Shown piece by piece: positions 5,006 through 62,580 of a stretch of DNA of 64,000 bases. The DNA comes from an archaeon (GTDB lineage Archaea > Undinarchaeota > CAZHTU01 > JBDRCC01): the NCBI GenBank assembly GCA_043822065.1, contig JBDRCC010000021.1, forward strand, positions 32,001 through 96,000, given 5' to 3'. Within the stretch, counting starts at the first letter, position 1, and every line of letters starts with the position of its first letter. The notes beneath the pieces were generated by a model that saw nothing but the letters and a program-made list of their open reading frames with translations, was not told where the DNA came from and ran no database searches. A program made the translations under genes and the position numbers.

Positions 5006-5101
5006 GCCTTCAGCTGCCGGTACAGCTCAGTCCCGACCTTTCTTTAGAAAAGAAAGCTCGACCAAAGAAATTACTGCTTCAGCTGCCGGTACAGCTCTGT
5101 C
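5002..5101. mobile_element. 38-bp three-arm repeat element (5033-5070) flanked by 31-bp direct repeats
   Basis: 5002-5032 and 5071-5101 are 27/31 identical. Insert is CCGACCTTTCTTTAGAAAAGAAAGCTCGACCAAAGAAA. Confidence 0.75.
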
Positions 5102-5820
5102 TTGAACCCGCCCAGCAGCACCCTGAAATACGCATAAATTACCCCGAACAGGGCAAACCCTACAACCATATTCGGCAGGTAGGGGTACGTAATCCAGACG
5201 CTCCCAAAAGCAAGCTCGTATACCACAACGCTTGGCACAAGGGCTATCGCAGGAATAGCCGCCGCAAAAATAGCGAGAAGCATCAGGACGTTATAGGCCA
5301 TCCAGTCCCAGAATATCTTCGCCTTCTGCCCTTTGAACTGCATGTAAGAGTCTATGACTATGTCGGCGTAGTCCTTCTTTATCAGCGCGCCGTGCTGGTA
5401 GGAGAAGAATAGCGGCACCCCCACAAACAGCCACAGCATTCCACCATACGTCGGAATGAATGTTATGAATACAAAATACCCAACCGCCAGGCTCAGCGTC
5501 ACAGCCGTGAACGTCGGGTAATGCGCCCTGAACCCGTCCCAGCTCTTTCGGAGGCTTTCCGCCCTCCCGCCGAAATACTGGTTCGCATTCCTGATTATGA
5601 CTCCCTCCAGTGCGATGTATGCCAGCACTGCCGCAGCCCCGCATGCCATAAAAACCAGCCCGGCCGCCACCGACGCTTCCATAGACGCCACTGCCCTCGA
5701 AATGAACAGGAGCCCTCCAAGCGCGAAAAAAGAAAGCGTGAACAATACGGCGTACGGCGCCATCCTCTCCCGGCTGTGGGCGTATGTCACCGCCCGCCTT
5801 ATCGCAGTCCTGTACCTCAT
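5071..5820 (-). CDS. multi-pass membrane protein
   Basis: About six hydrophobic segments. ATG at 5820 (MRYRTAIRR) has a TATA-like sequence about 25 nt upstream. Confidence 0.7.
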   Translation of the reverse strand: MRYRTAIRRAVTYAHSRERMAPYAVLFTLSFFALGGLLFISRAVASMEASVAAGLVFMACGAAAVLAYIALEGVIIRNANQYFGGRAESLRKSWDGFRAHYPTFTAVTLSLAVGYFVFITFIPTYGGMLWLFVGVPLFFSYQHGALIKKDYADIVIDSYMQFKGQKAKIFWDWMAYNVLMLLAIFAAAIPAIALVPSVVVYELAFGSVWITYPYLPNMVVGFALFGVIYAYFRVLLGGFKTELYRQLKQ

Positions 5821-5858
5821 TATGCTAATTGAATCTAAAAACTCATATTTAAAGCCAG

Positions 5859-6404
5859 CTAAGCTAGCACCAGCATGACGTACGGCGCAAACGAGCGGAA
5901 CATCACGAAATTCCAGACGATGTGCGTCAGCACGAACTTGGCGCAGCCTGCCGGGCTGTGCCCGGTGAAAACGTACACCCCGCATATCACCACATCATAA
6001 ATTACAGTCACCAGGACCCCGAGCGCAAGGATGCCCCCCACATTCAGCATCCCTGCCAGGAACCCTGCGAGCAGGAACCCGAAAACGCCTATCAGCACGT
6101 CGTCAGGCCTCTCCCTTGTGAAAAACCATGACAGCGCCATCGCAGCAGCGCCAACAAGGCCGCCAAGCATCGCGCCCTCCGACACAGCGGTGCAGACTGT
6201 AAAAAGCATTATCATTTCTATCCCGATGTCCCCGCCTGCGAACCTCTGCGGGACCCTGCTCAGCGCCCCGATCGCTACCATCAGCAGCAGCGCCCCCCCG
6301 AACTTCAGCTGGGCGCCGAACGTGTAGAACAGAAAGGCGATGAGCAAGGCTGCCGTCCCGGCTACCGCCCCAATGACCACCAGCGGCCGTTCTAGTATCC
6401 CCAT
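5859..6404 (-). CDS. membrane protein, ECF transporter S-component-like
   Basis: 181 aa, highly hydrophobic; IGIEMIMLFTVCTAVSEGAMLGGLVG pattern. Confidence 0.55.
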   Translation of the reverse strand: MGILERPLVVIGAVAGTAALLIAFLFYTFGAQLKFGGALLLMVAIGALSRVPQRFAGGDIGIEMIMLFTVCTAVSEGAMLGGLVGAAAMALSWFFTRERPDDVLIGVFGFLLAGFLAGMLNVGGILALGVLVTVIYDVVICGVYVFTGHSPAGCAKFVLTHIVWNFVMFRSFAPYVMLVLA

Positions 6405-17981: not shown

Positions 17982-18413
17982 ATGATAACCATAATAATCG
18001 GCTCCGAGTCAGACAGGCCAGTTGCCGAGAAAGCTGAAAAAATACTCTCCGAATTCGGCGTCCCATTCCAGACCCACGTCGCATCCGCCCACCGGACCCC
18101 GGACAGGCTCAAGGAAATCGTCACATCATCCAAATCCGACGTCTTCATAGCAATTGCCGGCTTATCCGCAGCCCTGCCTGGTGCGGTCGCCTCAATGACA
18201 GTAAAGCCTGTCATCGGCGTCCCGGTTAACGTCAAGCTTGGCGGGCTTGACGCCCTTCTCGCGATAATGCAGATGCCGCCAAAGGTCCCGGTCGCCGCCG
18301 TCGGGGTGGACAGGGCGGACAATGCAGCCTACCTGGCGGTTCAGATTCTATCGCTCAAGGACAAGGCCCTTGCAAAAAAGTTTGCAGACTTCAGGCAGTC
18401 GCTTTCTAAATAA
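17982..18413 (+). CDS. purE: N5-CAIR mutase / AIR carboxylase
   Basis: [21 protein letters not shown] and PVIGVP. Confidence 0.96.
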
Positions 18414-18508
18414 TAAACTTAAGCAGCAGCTTCCCAAGCGACCTTTCTTGAAAGAAAGCTCGACCAAAGAACGCCTAAATAATAAACTTAAACAGCAGCT
18501 TCCCAAGC
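18406..18508. mobile_element. 35-bp three-arm repeat element (18440-18474) flanked by 34-bp direct repeats
   Basis: 18406-18439 and 18475-18508 are 33/34 identical. Insert GACCTTTCTTGAAAGAAAGCTCGACCAAAGAACGC is nearly identical to the 5033 element. Confidence 0.78.
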
Positions 18509-26216: not shown

Positions 26217-26241
26217 ATACTTCCCAGCCCAAATTACCCTT

Positions 26242-26508
26242 GGTGGCTAGGCGGGGAGATAGTCGTACCCTTTACGCGAAATCGACTTCAGCGCGGCCGA
26301 ATGCCCTTTTGAGGCGGATAGGCTTTCTAATCTAGCCGTTTCCAAGCGTCGAAGCCCTGCCCTCAGGGGTGGTGCATCTGGACGAACCGGGCCAGGCGGG
26401 GAACCGTGCAACCCTAATCCTTATGTATTACGCTCTGCGGATCACGGGGTGGAGTTTGGATCGGTATTGGATTAGTTTGCACTAGCGTCGATTAAGGGTG
26501 CCACCACC
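26242..26508 (+). ncRNA. archaeal signal recognition particle RNA
   Basis: Terminal helix GGTGG/CCACC, Alu-like 5' end GGCTAGGCGGGG...CGAAA and helix 8 GGGCCAGGCGGGGAACCGTGCAACCC. Confidence 0.88.
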
Positions 26509-26512
26509 TCAA

Positions 26513-26557
26513 CCTTTTTCTTTTTAAAAAAGAAAAACGTTGGCGAAAAAGAAAACT
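26513..26557. repeat. three-arm repeat element
   Basis: CCTTTTTCTTTTT-AAAAAAGAAAAA-CGTTGGCG-AAAAAGAAAACT directly after the SRP RNA. Confidence 0.7.
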
Positions 26558-27607: not shown

Positions 27608-27693
27608 GCGGAGGTGGCAGAACCTGGTTAACGCGCAAGCCTGCTAAGCTTGTGGGCCTTTGGCCCGTTCGAGTTCAAATCTCGACCTCCGCG
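27608..27693 (+). tRNA. tRNA-Ser (GCT)
   Basis: Acceptor GCGGAGG/CCTCCGC plus G73, anticodon arm CAAGC-CTGCTAA-GCTTG, long variable arm GGGCC-TTT-GGCCC; CCA is not encoded. Confidence 0.95.
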
Positions 27694-44338: not shown

Positions 44339-45763
44339 ATGCGCAGCGTACTATACTATACCGGGCTGTCCCTTTCCATTCTCGGTCTTCTCCTTTTCGT
44401 CCCGGCTGCGGCGGCTTATTTACTATCCGAGCCGGTGGCGCCATTCCTCATAGCCTCTGCCGCAAGCATCATCCCCGGGCTGATCCTCCTTAAACTCGGC
44501 CGCAGGTCTGACCTCTCCCTAGGGCGGGCGTTCATCTTTGCGACTGCCATCTTCCTGCTTATGGCCCTTGTCGGCTCAATCCCCTTCCTCCTTTCAGAGG
44601 GATTCACAGGCGGGCTGCTCGACGCATACTTTGAGTCAATGTCCGGTTTCACCACAACCGGGCTGAGCCTGATAACAAACGTTGAAGCCCTGCCGGGAAG
44701 CCTTCTCATCTGGCGGAGCTTCACCCAGTGGATTGGCGGGATAGGCATCGTCGTCCTCTTCCTTTCCCTCCTTGTCCAGCCTGGAATCTCCTCCTACTAC
44801 CTTTCCAAGGTCGAGGGAAAAGACCAGCGCATCTGGCCTTCAATCGTCAAGACAAGCAGGGAGCAGTTCGGGATATACCTCCTCTATACCGCCCTTGGCG
44901 CAGGCGCCTTCATGCTCATAGGCCTCTCCGCTAAGGACTCCATAATCCATGTCTTTTCCTCCGTCAGCACGGGCGGCTTCTCCTCATACAACTTCAGCGT
45001 CGAGGCGCTTGAGGCGCTCGGCAACCCATACCTCGTCGACATGGTAGTCATAATACTCATGGTCGCGGGCTCGACCTCTTTCCTCCTCCATTCCAAGCTC
45101 CTCCGCGGCGATTACAAGAGGTTCATCAAGAACAGCGAGGTCAGGCTGTTCTACATCATAATCCTCCTGGCATCCGCCATCCTCGCATACGACCAGTACC
45201 TTGCGGGGCAGAGCCACTTCATCAAGAACGCGGTCTTCCAGTCGTTCTCAGCCCTTACCACAACCGGCTTCGTGAACATAGACATTGCATCCATGTCAAC
45301 CCTCGGGCAGTACATACTGGTGGTTCTCATGGTCCTCGGAGGCTCTTCCGGCTCGACATCAGGCGGAATAAAGATGATTCGGCTCCTGATATTCATCAAG
45401 TCGCTCTCCTACGCCCTGAAAAAGGCGATACTCCCGCCCGAGTCGGTCATCCCGTTCAAGATAGGCGACAACTCATTCGAGCAGCCGGCGGTCCTCGTCC
45501 TCGTCGGCTATTCTCTCCTCTACCTAATCCTCCTGGGGCTTGGCACGCTTGTGATAGTCGCGGACGGGTTCACATTCATGGAGTCCCTGTTCGAGTCGAC
45601 ATCCGCCCTCGGCACGGTCGGCCTGACGCTTGGAATCACAGCAAAGCTCGGCACTGCGAGCAAGATAGTGGTCATCCTTGAGATGCTCCTTGGCAGGCTT
45701 GAAATCCTCCCAGTGTTCGGCACCCTGCTCATGCTCACAAAATACGGAAGATTCTCCGAATAG
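44339..45763 (+). CDS. trkH: Trk potassium uptake membrane subunit
   Basis: FESMSGFTTTG, STGGFS, TTTGF, GSTSGGIK and LGTVG. Confidence 0.95.
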   Translation: MRSVLYYTGLSLSILGLLLFVPAAAAYLLSEPVAPFLIASAASIIPGLILLKLGRRSDLSLGRAFIFATAIFLLMALVGSIPFLLSEGFTGGLLDAYFESMSGFTTTGLSLITNVEALPGSLLIWRSFTQWIGGIGIVVLFLSLLVQPGISSYYLSKVEGKDQRIWPSIVKTSREQFGIYLLYTALGAGAFMLIGLSAKDSIIHVFSSVSTGGFSSYNFSVEALEALGNPYLVDMVVIILMVAGSTSFLLHSKLLRGDYKRFIKNSEVRLFYIIILLASAILAYDQYLAGQSHFIKNAVFQSFSALTTTGFVNIDIASMSTLGQYILVVLMVLGGSSGSTSGGIKMIRLLIFIKSLSYALKKAILPPESVIPFKIGDNSFEQPAVLVLVGYSLLYLILLGLGTLVIVADGFTFMESLFESTSALGTVGLTLGITAKLGTASKIVVILEMLLGRLEILPVFGTLLMLTKYGRFSE

Positions 45764-45764
45764 T

Positions 45765-45842
45765 CCGACCCTTTCTTTTTAGAAAAAAGAAATGGTACGC
45801 TATCCAAAGAAAAACTATCTTAGTCCTCGCTCCGCTCGGAGT
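45765..45842. repeat. three-arm repeat element with TCGCTCCGCTC tail
   Basis: CCGACCCTTTCTTTTT-AG-AAAAAAGAAA...CCAAAGAAAAACT...TCC-TCGCTCCGCTC-GGA. Confidence 0.72.
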
Positions 45843-45844
45843 TA

Positions 45845-45884
45845 TAAAAAAAGAAAAAAGGAGGCAGGAAGAGATATCCTGCCT
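45845..45884 (-). terminator. hairpin plus T-tract after the lipoprotein gene
   Basis: AGGCAGGA/TCCTGCCT stem followed on the minus strand by CTTTTTTCTTTTTTT. Confidence 0.55.
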
Positions 45885-57492: not shown

Positions 57493-60400
57493 GTGGTTGG
57501 AAAATTAGAGCTGTCATCCATCTTAGGCATTGTGATATTTATCCTAGGGGCACTTATCTGGACCACCACCCCCGCTGGGTTCCTAATGCGCGACCACCTG
57601 ACCGGCTTCGCAACCTTGAACGCCGGCGATGCGTGCACCATCGACAGCGACTGCATATCCGGCTACTGCAGGAACGACTACGACGGCGGGAGCTTCTGCG
57701 CGGAAAACTCGACAGCCTGCGTGCATGATACCAGCCAGTACCCCTCAGAAGATAATCCGTTCTCGACAAACATTTCGGACTACAATGGTAGTGATTATCA
57801 TTGCAAGGATGGTCACTGGTCTGAGGACCCGTTCCAGAACTCAAGGACGTATTCCAGTCTGGACTTCTCGGCCGCAGGCATGAACGCATCAACCGCGGTT
57901 ACCGTCTTGGAAGGCGCAATCCTGCAGTCTGCGACGCTCTCAGCAAAGTTCAACGGCACCCAGGCATACTGGATGACTTACAGCGCCTCACCCGATGACA
58001 CCCGCCTCACTTACGACTCAGCAGCGTCGTCCGAGCCTTCTGTCCTCCTCCATCCCAATGGGGACGCCTCAATAGTCTGGACTGACGCAAGGGAAGGGGG
58101 AGAGGAGGTTTACTACAAGAAAATAAATGCAACAGGCAGTATGCTGGTCAACGACACACGCCTCAGCGCGGGCGGGCTGACGTCTAGGTACGTCTCCGCA
58201 GCCATTGACACCGCAGAAAATATCTATCTCGTTTGGGAGGACGCGCAGGATGTATACTTCAAGAAAGCCAATTCTACGGGCGGGGAGCTCGTTTCACCGA
58301 CACAGCTCACCAATAGCACTGATGCCTACCGCCCTTACGTAGCCCTTGACAGCTCAGGCAGCATCCATATAGTCTGGTACGACCGCAGGGACTGGGTGAA
58401 GGGCGCTGACATCTACTACACTAAAATAGACGGCAGTGGGGCTACAGTCGTCGATGACATGCGGCTGACTACAAGCGGCACCGGAAGCTCCCCAATTGCG
58501 GTCGTAGACGCATCAAACAGCGTCCACGTCCTCTGGGTGTCGTCCTCTGAGGTCTATTACACAAAACTCGACAACAGTGGGAACACTATAATAGACGACA
58601 CCCAAGTCACCTCAACAGGGGCGAAATCAAATTTTCCGCATGCCACGGTCGATTCCTCAGGTAACATCTCCTTTGTTTGGACGTATGAACTCGTTTTACA
58701 TTCGGTTTCTGAAATATACTACAAGCAGTTAAACCTGACCGGCTCAGAGCTGATAGGAGACACTCAGCTGACATATACTTCTGCTTTCGCACAGAAGCCG
58801 AAGATTGTAAACCAGTCTTGCGCGCTTTTTGTTGCCTGGTACGATTCCCGCACAGGTAACAATGAGGTATACTACAAGAAGCTTAACGCAACTGGCGGCA
58901 CGCTGATTAACGATACGCAGGTGACCAACGATGGCGGCGCCTCCACATACCCCACTGTTGCGGTCGATCCAGACCTAAGCGTCTATATAGCATGGCAGGA
59001 CGACAGAGCCGGGAACAGCGAGATATACTTCGAGAGGCAGAGCTACGGCTCAAACCAGATTACCGCAACCCTGGAAGTCCCGGCAGCACCGCCGGCGGTT
59101 ACCCTCAGTAACTCAGGCACCTACTACTCCCTGAATATGACCTCCCAGCTCCAGCAGTACATGAACTCCTACTGCACATCGGGCAACTGTACAATGCCGA
59201 TAACTGTCTCGGTCAACTCCCAAGCATTGGTAGTCCTAGACAACCTCGCAGTAGTCTACGCGACGATGCCAGTCCTTGACGCGCTGTCAAACCAGACCAT
59301 TGTGACAAACCAGCCGTTTGTGTATGACATAAACGCCTCTGATTTGGACGGCGGGCCACTTACCTTCTCTGACAATACTGCCCTCTTCGACATTGACCCG
59401 GCAAGCGGCGTAATATCTTTCACCCCAACAGAATTTGGCAGCCACTTGGTGAACATCTCAGTATCAGACGGGACCTACTCTGACTCCCAGGTAGTTCTCT
59501 TTACCATAAACTCGCTGTCGGAATGCACCTACGATGCCGAATGCCCGTCGGGCTACTGCAGGAACGACTACGACGGCGGCAAATTCTGTGCTGTCAACAC
59601 GACAGCCTGCGTCCACAATGGAGATCAATACCCGTCAGAAGCTGCCTACTCCTCAAACAAGATAACACTCGCACCAAGCACTTACAGGTGCAGAGGCGGG
59701 CACTGGTCTGAGGACCCGTTTGGCAACAACAACACATTCTCTGACGTGTCGTTCATCGAGGCAAAAACGGATAGCTCATCCTTCATCGCCCCCCCTATAC
59801 GGATGATATTCGATTCCGCGTATATGGACGTCAGCGGCAAACCAATTACGCTTGCCCCCGGCGCTTACATGGGGCCATACACTGACTCTCTCAACGATGT
59901 CGCCTTCATAGACAAAGAGACGGTCAACGGAGATACGAAATTCTTTGTTTCAGGCGGCTACTACCAACCAAGTTTGTTCAAATCCGCGGTTGCAGTCTAC
60001 AATTACTCAAACGGCGCATTCAATCTTGAGAACATGACACTCCTTTATATCAATGAGAAAGCATGTGGCCTCGACGCAACCACTGTAAACGGCGAAACGA
60101 AAGTCTTTGTGTCAGCAACGGGCTCTAGCGGAGTTGTGCTGGCGGTCTTAAACTACACAAACGGGAAGCTTTACGTAGAAAACTATACCGCCACTCCAAT
60201 TGGAACTATTACTGAACAAGAGGTGGCAGTCGCCTTCGATGCCGGAGGGCAGAAAAAGATATTGACCACGCTTAAGCCGAGCCTCAACACAAATGCGCTC
60301 ATGGTGTTTAACTACACTAACGGCAAGCTATACGCGGAAAACTACACGCTTGTGAACAGCTCAATAGAGCTCATATTTGACGCTGCTGCTGGCGCAATAG

Positions 60401-62580
60401 ACGGCCAGCCAAAGATTTTCATCAGCGGATATTTTATTAAAATGCCGGAGTTTGTGTTTGAGGCGGTATTGGCGGTATACAACTACACCGACGGAAAGCT
60501 CTACGAGGAGGACATACTCCGCGACCCAGCCAATACTTATGCATACGGCGTTGCAGTCGCAAACATAAGCTCTCAGCCAAAGATACTGGTTACTGGATAC
60601 AGTTCTAACTCCAACATCTACACCAGCATCTACAACTACACTGGCGGGAAGCTTTACCAGGAGAACTTCACCACTCTCCGATTGGCGCCGTCTTCCGGTC
60701 AGGCGGTAGCACTTGCCGAGTTTGGCGGGCAGGAAAAAATACTCTCTGCCGGATCTGTGACGGACGGGGTTTCCCCTTCCAGCAATACCGATTTCCTGTT
60801 CGTTGTATACAACTATACTGAAGGCAAGCTGCTCGTCGAGAACTACACGATCCAGGATAACAACGCAAACTACGATTCCGTTGCCTCCGTTACTGTCGCC
60901 AACATAAGCGGAAGGCAAACCGCAGTATTCGTGGGGGACAGCGGCGCGGGAGGCAGCAATATAGGAAGAATTATGGCATACGATTACTTCCTGGAAAACG
61001 TTACAGAAACCCCGTACGACGTTTCCGTTGACGTTGGCACCGATAACTCTGTTGAATGGCAGTACACCAGCTATCTAAACCAATCAGTTGCGCCGCACAC
61101 AATCGACCTAAAGAGCACGCTCGAATCCCTTACACAGACTTGTGAGGATGCCGACCATGACCTTTTCTGCGACTCTATACTGATAGACGTCTCCGTTAGC
61201 GGGAGGGGAGTAATAACCCTAGATAACCTCCGCATAGCGTACAGTTACTACCCAGACACCGGCCAGGCTTGCCAGGAGAATCTTAACTGCTCGCTGCGCT
61301 ACTGCAGGAATGATTACACGGCTCAGAAATACTGCGCGTACAATGCCTCCACCTGCGTCCACGACGGCGATTGGTACCTCTCACAAGGCTTGTTCTCAAG
61401 CTTGATGGACGCGTATGGCACGAATAGACGGTGCAACCTCGGCCACTGGTCGCAGGACCCATTCGCCGATGGCAACACTTACGCCTATGCGATCTTCAAC
61501 AGCAGCTTCGGCGAAATGAGCTCAAACGCCTCCATAATCATAAGGCCTTACAAAGGCGGGAACGTCACCGAAGCCCACTTCTTCGTAACCTCCGAAACCA
61601 ATGTCACAAACAACACCCTCAACAACGTCACAATAGACGTAGGCAATGACGGCACATACGAGTGGAATTACACGGGTAACTTCACACAAACCCAGTCACC
61701 GGTTAACCTTTCGTTCGCATCAACCCTCACAGAGCTTGCAGCAGGCTGCACCAACACAAACGATGCCTATTGCGACGGCATATACATCAACATCTCCGCC
61801 AACGGAGCTGGAACAGTAACCCTTGACAACCTCCTTATAGACTACAGGCTGCACGACGGCACCGGCTGTGATGCAGACTACAAATGCAATTCGCTCCACT
61901 GCGTCCATGGGACTTGCAGACCGACATACCCCTACCCTAATGACGGGTACTGCGACCCAGGGGAGTACTGCGAAAATGAAAATGCCTGCTGCAATGAAAT
62001 CACTGTCCTGCCTGCATATCCGCGGCTTCCCCGGCCCGGTCAGATGCCTTCAAGACCGCCTTCAAGCGCGCCGCAGGTAGAGATTGACGGAACCACAGGG
62101 GGAGGCGGCGAAAAAGGGTCGATAGAAGGGACTGGAACCAAAGCAGCAATAGCTGAAGACACGGAAGTAATGGCGGAGCGTGAGAGCTGGTGCACCCCGA
62201 TAGTAATAATAAAGAACGTGGTGCCCGTAGTGAGCATCGTGCACACCGAGGACGGGCCGATACTAATTGAGCTTACCGACTCGCAGGGCGTATCGCTCAA
62301 GTGTGTCCACATAACGGTTGTATTCACATCAGGTCAAGTCTTTACCCTGAGGACGAACGAGCTCGGCTTTGCAGAAATAAAGACCTACGAAGGCGATCCG
62401 CTCGAAGTAAGGATTGAGGAGGGTGGAATAGCGCTTGCAACACTCAACAAGGATGAGCTGGCAGCCGCGACCACAATGATCTCGCCGGAGGCAGCCCGTC
62501 AATTCAGCACGTGGATGGTAATTGCCCTTGTAGTGATGATACTACCCCTTATCTTCTTCTACCTTATGATGCGGCGCTGA
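57493..62580 (+). CDS. large modular surface glycoprotein (Cys-rich repeats, propeller-like repeats, cadherin-like domain, C-terminal TM)
   Basis: Three YCRNDY...CVH...GHWS.DPF modules, W.D.R.G..E.YY repeats, YNYT.GKL..EN repeats, INASDLDG...IDPASGVISFTP and many N-x-S/T sequons. Confidence 0.8.
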   Translation: MVGKLELSSILGIVIFILGALIWTTTPAGFLMRDHLTGFATLNAGDACTIDSDCISGYCRNDYDGGSFCAENSTACVHDTSQYPSEDNPFSTNISDYNGSDYHCKDGHWSEDPFQNSRTYSSLDFSAAGMNASTAVTVLEGAILQSATLSAKFNGTQAYWMTYSASPDDTRLTYDSAASSEPSVLLHPNGDASIVWTDAREGGEEVYYKKINATGSMLVNDTRLSAGGLTSRYVSAAIDTAENIYLVWEDAQDVYFKKANSTGGELVSPTQLTNSTDAYRPYVALDSSGSIHIVWYDRRDWVKGADIYYTKIDGSGATVVDDMRLTTSGTGSSPIAVVDASNSVHVLWVSSSEVYYTKLDNSGNTIIDDTQVTSTGAKSNFPHATVDSSGNISFVWTYELVLHSVSEIYYKQLNLTGSELIGDTQLTYTSAFAQKPKIVNQSCALFVAWYDSRTGNNEVYYKKLNATGGTLINDTQVTNDGGASTYPTVAVDPDLSVYIAWQDDRAGNSEIYFERQSYGSNQITATLEVPAAPPAVTLSNSGTYYSLNMTSQLQQYMNSYCTSGNCTMPITVSVNSQALVVLDNLAVVYATMPVLDALSNQTIVTNQPFVYDINASDLDGGPLTFSDNTALFDIDPASGVISFTPTEFGSHLVNISVSDGTYSDSQVVLFTINSLSECTYDAECPSGYCRNDYDGGKFCAVNTTACVHNGDQYPSEAAYSSNKITLAPSTYRCRGGHWSEDPFGNNNTFSDVSFIEAKTDSSSFIAPPIRMIFDSAYMDVSGKPITLAPGAYMGPYTDSLNDVAFIDKETVNGDTKFFVSGGYYQPSLFKSAVAVYNYSNGAFNLENMTLLYINEKACGLDATTVNGETKVFVSATGSSGVVLAVLNYTNGKLYVENYTATPIGTITEQEVAVAFDAGGQKKILTTLKPSLNTNALMVFNYTNGKLYAENYTLVNSSIELIFDAAAGAIDGQPKIFISGYFIKMPEFVFEAVLAVYNYTDGKLYEEDILRDPANTYAYGVAVANISSQPKILVTGYSSNSNIYTSIYNYTGGKLYQENFTTLRLAPSSGQAVALAEFGGQEKILSAGSVTDGVSPSSNTDFLFVVYNYTEGKLLVENYTIQDNNANYDSVASVTVANISGRQTAVFVGDSGAGGSNIGRIMAYDYFLENVTETPYDVSVDVGTDNSVEWQYTSYLNQSVAPHTIDLKSTLESLTQTCEDADHDLFCDSILIDVSVSGRGVITLDNLRIAYSYYPDTGQACQENLNCSLRYCRNDYTAQKYCAYNASTCVHDGDWYLSQGLFSSLMDAYGTNRRCNLGHWSQDPFADGNTYAYAIFNSSFGEMSSNASIIIRPYKGGNVTEAHFFVTSETNVTNNTLNNVTIDVGNDGTYEWNYTGNFTQTQSPVNLSFASTLTELAAGCTNTNDAYCDGIYINISANGAGTVTLDNLLIDYRLHDGTGCDADYKCNSLHCVHGTCRPTYPYPNDGYCDPGEYCENENACCNEITVLPAYPRLPRPGQMPSRPPSSAPQVEIDGTTGGGGEKGSIEGTGTKAAIAEDTEVMAERESWCTPIVIIKNVVPVVSIVHTEDGPILIELTDSQGVSLKCVHITVVFTSGQVFTLRTNELGFAEIKTYEGDPLEVRIEEGGIALATLNKDELAAATTMISPEAARQFSTWMVIALVVMILPLIFFYLMMRR

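Follow-up and report, generated by a model that had tools for sequence, protein, structure and literature searches.

A small hairpin element, very probably mobile, within a target duplication at the purE/GGR junction of an archaeal genome

The purE/GGR junction and the element copies of the window

In the window, by which we mean the whole 64-kb stretch of DNA that was analyzed, purE and the geranylgeranyl reductase (GGR) gene converge on a pair of 34-nt direct repeats that enclose a 35-nt insert (Table 1). The repeats are identical at 33 of 34 positions, the single mismatch being G at 18423 and A at 18492, and their period is 69 bp. Read on the minus strand, the proximal copy encodes LGKLLFKFII*, the true C terminus of the 396-aa GGR open reading frame, and the distal copy overlaps the last 8 nt of purE. 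Deletion of one 69-bp unit in silico leaves purE and GGR converging with an 8-nt overlap. An earlier sequence-only reading of this DNA had reported the two repeats around the insert, their 69-bp period, their translation as LGKLL(F/L)KFII*, and the overlap with purE, and all of these facts were verified.

The insert, W1, consists of an 11-bp hairpin with a C.C mismatch, an ACC linker, a mirror purine tract (AAAGAA), and a 3-nt tail (CGC). It is one of four element copies in the window (W1 to W4), two of which have flanking repeats. The repeat around W2 is 25 nt long and identical at 24 of 25 positions, or 31 nt long if a degenerate TTAAGC/TTACTG extension (5002/5071) is included; it is unrelated to the purE/GGR repeat, and its period is again 69. 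The W2 tail, ATTACTG, now provides the final codon and the stop of a minus-strand gene (5071-5985). The cores of W1 and W2 have in common a 20-mer that occurs exactly twice in the window, compared with 0 expected from 100 shuffles, which confirms that a nearly identical core lies between unrelated repeats at a second locus. The two had been read as independent insertions at convergent gene ends, and this is true of both, each with its own target duplication, but targets elsewhere are not only convergent.

W3 follows an archaeal SRP RNA gene (26240-26507; Rfam score, 105.7 bits), and W4 is a long form that follows the TrkH gene. A significant flanking repeat was looked for around both copies, and none was detected. 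A 337-aa open reading frame called from 26540 would have its start inside W3. Rfam places a tRNA at 27608-27693 (52.1 bits), and ARAGORN gave none there on the contig. A 1,695-aa open reading frame (57493-62577) has no Pfam match at E ≤ 1e-5, and its neighbor is a 695-aa protein with thrombospondin type 3 repeats. By Pfam, the gene content of the window consists of housekeeping genes only.

Table 1. Coordinates of genes, repeats, and element copies in the window and of one repeated region elsewhere in the source genome (G000)
Feature	Position	Strand	Remarks
DR1 of W2	5008..5032		25 nt; degenerate extension from 5002
Element copy W2	5033..5076	+	Model match 5034-5069; 7-nt tail
DR2 of W2	5077..5101		Contiguous with 304-aa minus-strand ORF
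purE (AIR carboxylase; AIRC domain)	17982..18413	+	Stop inside DR1
DR1, distal target-duplication copy	18406..18439		Pseudo-copy of GGR C terminus; first 8 nt hold purE stop
Element copy W1, short form	18440..18474	+	Covariance-model match 18439-18471
DR2, proximal target-duplication copy	18475..18508		Contiguous with GGR; last 10 codons and stop (18475-18477)
Geranylgeranyl reductase (GGR), 396 aa	18475..19665	-	GGR_cat and FAD_binding_3
Element copy W3	26510..26555	+	Begins 3 nt past SRP RNA gene
Element copy W4, long form with TCGCTCCGCTCGG tail module	45762..45850	+	Begins 1-3 nt past TrkH stop (45758-45760)
Repeated 100-103-aa ORF region	C1:63429-63867, C3:16841-17565, C6:74746-75453, C6:78244-78574		G000 contig coordinates

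The element family and its two ends

A scan of the source genome (1.03 Mb in 22 contigs, 82% complete) for short-range direct repeats gave 102 pairs, 18 of which, read by eye, bracket a hairpin of the element design. We then used a covariance model built from eight element copies, which gave 28 matches in G000 at E ≤ 1 (13 of them at E ≤ 0.003) and two further repeat-flanked copies, for a total of about 20. Model matches were obtained in 10 of 17 genomes of the phylum and in 25 of 151 relatives, and Rfam held no family matching the element. A 14-mer scan of viral contigs produced mostly chance matches; two of 80 loci fit the model, one of them apparently a genuine copy, with no repeat beside it. 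An IMG/VR contig of 8.9 kb that is classed as viral (L286) carries an element-like copy with a model E value of 4e-5 and without a flanking repeat. In the G000 assembly itself, the contig ends C5/C9, C3/C19, C4/C22, C10/C11, and C18/C22 overlap by 350 to 850 bp at 91 to 98% identity, which suggests strain mixtures or unjoined assembly ends.

The elements are 33 to 113 nt long, have no protein-coding capacity, and follow a single order: a 5-nt foot, a pyrimidine arm, a 2- to 5-nt loop, a purine arm, the foot complement (usually with one C.C mismatch), a 3-nt linker, and a second purine tract. In an alignment of 100 copies from G000 and relatives, changes on both sides occur in 12 of the 13 hairpin pairs, and 183 cells covary compared with 39 ± 5 in shuffled versions (0 of 500 shuffles as high), the alignment having been fitted to the model, which favors the structure by construction. 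The third tract was compared with the purine arm in 55 copies. Once five copies with a palindromic arm had been set aside, the reversed arm fit better in 31 of the 50 informative copies, worse in 3, and equally well in 16; perfect mirrors of 12 to 13 nt are present in one relative (G030). A mirror relation of this kind is what an intrastrand triple helix requires, and, judged from the sequences, either strand could form one, of the purine motif in one case and of the pyrimidine motif in the other. Copies at unrelated loci have foot, linker, and tail sequence in common beyond the needs of the fold. The copies thus constitute a family with common descent, and the repeat is derived from a different target at every locus.

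The two ends of the element behave differently across a pool of 47 repeat-flanked events, composed of 19 events from G000, where one more fell below the score cut, and 28 from relatives. In 46 of the 47 events, 0 to 9 nt separate the left repeat from the hairpin, whereas the distance from the end of the model to the right repeat is anywhere from 0 to 131 nt; the hairpin-side junction is fixed and the tail-side junction is variable. Long copies have tail modules in common that are missing from short copies. The long-copy tail of G000 reads TAC..TAG..TCGCTCCGCTC(A/G)G followed by an A/T-rich end, and those of G116 and G030 contain a covarying second hairpin and a third hairpin. Short copies, W1 and W2 included, end 3 to 7 nt beyond the mirror tract. 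The variable tail may have arisen by truncation; alternatively, it may consist of filler or of DNA that was captured.

Of 20 events upstream of genes that were counted manually, 19 have the element and the gene in the same direction, a bias that could come from selection against the T-rich complementary strand as a terminator. At tRNA 3' ends, both orientations were read (8 versus 4, manually), so polarity is not tied to the target. Tandem arrays of repeat, element, and tail with at least two identical units were observed at L045 (G007), L065 (G012), L053 (G005), and L058 (G011), with periods of 84, 106, 91, and 151, respectively, as expected of unequal exchange between duplications. At a tRNA-Val 3' end of G116 (L182; C14:24791-24897), two opposed copies with their hairpin ends outward lie within one 14-nt repeat pair, which looks like a composite with inverted ends. 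In G087, elements lie in the loops of other element hairpins beside tRNA 3' ends, with one 8- to 11-nt arm duplicated (L195 to L202).

Targets at gene ends

Among the targets are tRNA 5' and 3' ends, the SRP RNA 3' end, and the starts and stops of protein genes; besides convergent junctions, copies occupy junctions between tandem genes and, in one case, the space between divergent genes. Each repeat duplicates the local target, nearly always a gene end, and thereby restores the end that was interrupted. At tRNA 5' ends, the repeat begins 0 to 9 nt ahead of position 1, or 18 nt in one case, and runs as far as the D-loop, and at tRNA 3' ends it extends from the T-loop to 0 to 8 nt past the discriminator, with one event reaching +23. 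In protein-gene events, the repeat spans the first or last 13 to 54 nt. For the six events of G000 at protein 3' ends, the outer edge of the repeat is 0, 1, 2, 4, 6, and 7 nt inside the stop codon, and in five of these events the stop codon comes partly or wholly from the insert (window 5071-5076; C18, C19, C20); in three of the five, the last 4 to 7 nt of the insert resemble the former terminal codons with synonymous changes. In seven protein 5'-end events, the edge of the repeat is within 3 nt of the start codon, the starts having been judged by eye. Since insertions whose duplication fails to restore the gene are lost, survivorship must explain part of the gene-end pattern; the tight outer edge of the repeats suggests that gene or transcript ends are also mechanistically favored. 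A tRNA intron, other element copies, and the regions upstream of genes harbor copies as well.

No motif was found at the target breakpoints of the 47 events. A T follows the hairpin-side breakpoint in 24 of them, partly owing to conserved tRNA loops. Microhomology beyond the repeats is in weak excess on both the tail side (p = 0.03) and the hairpin side (p = 0.0006), the latter excess being due to tandem or nested copies. In the tRNA D- and T-arm events and in the element-in-element events of G087, the duplication equals one arm of a target hairpin. This relation was rejected for 23 non-tRNA events, in which the energy of the repeat-flank duplex is as in shuffles (z about 0), and MFE folds computed for the rebuilt empty sites spoke neither for nor against it.

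In both tRNA-Arg 3' events of G000, the rebuilt gene end gains a CCA that the old trailer is without; this gain is absent from five further tRNA 3' events of relatives, and CCA is encoded by 12 of the 34 tRNA genes in G000. Mature tRNA acting as a primer through its CCA end was considered and, with the five events of relatives lacking the gain, left as weak. The predicted intron of a G000 tRNA that is probably Phe (GAA; C12:1066-1175) is an element-like hairpin whose A-rich mirror tract runs into the anticodon loop. There are hints that element insertions may turn into tRNA introns. The archaeal bulge-helix-bulge intron, defined by two 3-nt bulges flanking a 4-bp helix, was rejected as a description of repeat plus element; the one copy inspected by hand, at tRNA-Arg(UCG), lacks this feature and has a 6-bp helix with 5 nt and 10 nt unpaired.

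Movement of the element and its relation to known systems

W1 is very probably a copy of a small, protein-less, non-autonomous mobile element that was inserted with target duplication. The element would have landed in the last 34 bp of GGR, at a time when this gene and purE had an 8-bp overlap. Breaks in the two target strands, or the points at which a polymerase left and rejoined them, would have been 34 bp apart, and repair would have duplicated those 34 bp so that both genes kept an intact end. An empty purE/GGR site was found neither among 41 related genomes nor among 80 metagenome loci, the closest GGR in genomes and metagenomes being 49 to 50% identical, and insertion is therefore inferred from the paralogous copies. 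A counterpoint is that a repeat was detected around only two of the four copies in the window.

The period of 69 bp common to W1 and W2 had led the sequence-only reading to propose a ruler-type integrase that works at a fixed period. When duplication length and period were tabulated over the genomic copies, both were found to vary, an outcome that the sequence-only reading had named as refuting its proposal: the 47 events have repeats of 13 to 67 bp and periods of 55 to 196 bp. The 20 G000 copies have periods of 55, 67, 68, 69, 69, 69, 70, 71, 73, 75, 77, 82, 89, 92, 100, 104, 106, 107, 121, and 154. Period 69 is found in three events, all from G000 (two in the window and one at a tRNA-Tyr gene), and in 0 of 28 events in relatives. 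The cluster of periods between 67 and 77 is the sum of a 33- to 36-nt core, a short tail, and a 17- to 35-nt repeat, and the two window periods are made up as 34 + 35 and 25 + 44, a coincidence. By a rough, post hoc estimate, 3 of 13 short-form periods would coincide within a 35-value range with p ~ 0.2, a value that is not negligible. We consider it probable that both parts of this account hold jointly, that is, that the element is mobile and inserted with target duplication and that the common 69-bp period is coincidental. Cas1-like ruler integration of a fixed 69-bp unit with about 34 bp duplicated, in effect a CRISPR repeat turned inside out, would draw on the period of the two window copies and the tRNA-Tyr copy and on duplication sizes that overlap those of CRISPR repeats. 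It is barely credible in view of the spread of periods and repeats, the lack of any event at 69 in relatives, and an element without terminal inverted repeats; moreover, none of 11 element-bearing genomes, of which four are at least 92% complete, gave a Cas1 (PF01867) match in a search whose control was positive in 7 of 14 known genomes. The hairpin might instead be an immobile terminator-like or triplex motif of gene ends at which polymerase stalling produces local slippage duplications. Bacterial triplex repeats stall polymerases and raise local variability, according to the main text of PMC4666352, and arrays of tandem repeat and element do occur in relatives. Slippage would, however, produce repeat-element-repeat-element and not an element bracketed by one duplicated target; the sequence common to foot, linker, and tail at unrelated loci exceeds what the fold requires, and the positions upstream of genes, in a tRNA intron, and in other copies also speak against this explanation, which we regard as very improbable.

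No polymerase or nuclease was linked to the element among the families searched. All of the genomes searched are incomplete to some degree, so that absence of an enzyme here means that it was not found. RVT_1, Cas1, Y1_Tnp (PF01797), GIY-YIG, and the TnpB nuclease domain were not found in G000, which means that the search for Cas1, reverse transcriptase, HUH/RAYT, and GIY-YIG genes advocated on the basis of the sequence came back empty in this genome; a single tyrosine recombinase gene is present. A region of G000 with a 100- to 103-aa open reading frame and a GTGTAGG-rich noncoding stretch is repeated three to four times at 75 to 89% identity. This family, which has a conserved region upstream of the reading frame and was considered as an autonomous partner element, has no Pfam match.

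The RNA-templated mechanism that the sequence-only reading had offered beside the ruler may still hold, although RVT_1 was not found in 23 of the 25 element-bearing genomes. In its SINE-like form, a complementary-strand RNA with a 3' end capped by a U.A-U triple helix would be reverse transcribed at a nicked target, which would yield 5'-truncated copies and variable duplications. The duplications are indeed variable and the length variation is one-sided, many junctions lie where RNAs end, both G000 tRNA-Arg 3' events gain CCA, and the topology of the element matches that of 3'-end RNA triple helices, which, as described in the pertinent part of PMC12501189, stabilize transcripts that include one of a plant retrotransposon. 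We nevertheless judge this route unlikely. RVT_1 was detected in 10 of 151 relatives, namely, in 2 of 25 with the element and 8 of 126 without an element match, and in 0 of the 11 element-richest genomes, which counts heavily against it; the five tRNA 3' events of relatives show no CCA gain, and, relative to transcription, copies lie in either direction. We rate as quite unlikely a MITE that is mobilized by a DDE transposase cutting with a long and variable stagger, as reported for IS1634 and IS1549. Precedent for long variable repeats exists in IS1549 and IS1634, whose direct repeats measure 8 to 514 bp, with no mechanistic model given in the part of PMC2266710 that deals with them and the family said there to be diverse in archaea. 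The left end of the element, on inspection of full-length and short copies, is unlike the reverse complement of the full-length right ends, and self-BLAST of G000 gave no multicopy IS-sized repeat. DDE_Tnp_1, the only DDE family covered by the search, does not follow element matches: of the 17 genomes of the phylum, four carry it, two of these without an element match, and it was not found in the element-rich genomes G000, G011, G012, and G005.

The mode of movement that we favor, tentatively, is copy-and-paste through polar, target-primed synthesis at a broken target. A target 3'-OH would prime synthesis with a single-stranded DNA or RNA copy of the element as template, starting at its structured end; synthesis would halt within the tail, at a position that differs between events, and the break in the second strand would come 13 to 67 nt away. 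Polar copy-in of this kind would explain why one end is fixed and the other variable, why the duplications differ in length, and why inverted repeats are missing; both orientations at tRNA 3' ends, and a tail that may be filler, count against it. Candidate movers are an unrecognized protein dedicated to the element, a host polymerase that serves replication or repair, and a factor acting in trans. A more radical version, which we think doubtful, is that a housekeeping polymerase, on reaching the physical end of a gene or transcript, switches to the triplex-capped end of the element and then returns, with no dedicated reverse transcriptase, transposase, or Cas1. The ends from which it would switch are transcription starts, tRNA and SRP RNA 3' ends, and ends close to stop codons. 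If true, the element would be the first prokaryotic retroposon-like repeat without an enzyme, and the mechanism would generate leaders, trailers, and perhaps introns of archaeal tRNAs.

A targeted literature search, with supplements outside its scope, found no description of such an element. In architecture, its nearest relatives are the bacterial intrastrand triplex repeats, and in behavior they are the SINEs. The PIT, BoxC, and TMECO elements (Holder et al. 2015, PMC4666352) are likewise dispersed, intergenic, and protein-less, with a mirror-related third tract; in each, three stems (A, B, and C) are separated by two loops. The present element differs from them in being archaeal, apparently in its sequence, and in being bracketed by 13- to 67-bp target duplications at gene ends; the words "duplication," "direct repeat," and "tRNA" never occur in the main text of Holder et al. 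Like the element, SINEs and other non-LTR retroposons are short noncoding copies with variable target duplications and with one fixed and one variable end. They, too, land beside tRNA genes in compact genomes. The element differs in having no reverse transcriptase partner in 23 of 25 genomes and no A-tail and in being prokaryotic.

MITEs and REP/REPIN sequences are comparably tiny, hairpin forming, multicopy, and located at gene ends, but the element has no terminal inverted repeats, no short fixed duplication, and, in G000, no Y1 gene. REP/REPIN sequences are moved by RAYT Y1 transposases, and, to our knowledge, REPs leave no duplication; 10 to 12 of the 13 best model matches in G000 have long duplications, unlike such duplication-free insertion. 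Casposons and CRISPR spacer integration also use tRNA or gene 3'-end sites and make duplications that exceed those of most transposons. Casposon duplications are fixed at about 14 to 15 bp and come with inverted repeats and a Cas1 gene, whereas the duplications of the element vary in length and Cas1 was not found. IS1634 and IS1549, which also produce long variable direct repeats on insertion (8 to 514 bp, from the part of PMC2266710 on these elements), are 1.5 to 2 kb long with their own DDE transposase, in contrast to an element of 33 to 113 nt that no such gene tracks.

W1 is an ordinary member of an unusual and apparently undescribed family. The 1-Mb genomes of small archaea are thought to be nearly free of mobile DNA, and G000 holds about 20 to 30 element copies that land in the first or last few dozen bases of genes and leave the gene intact. 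For annotation these copies are a hazard, as they create false "att sites," false tRNA fragments, and altered protein C termini. If movement needs no dedicated enzyme, the family would represent an unknown way of inserting DNA, and new leaders, trailers, and terminators, possibly also tRNA introns, would originate from it.
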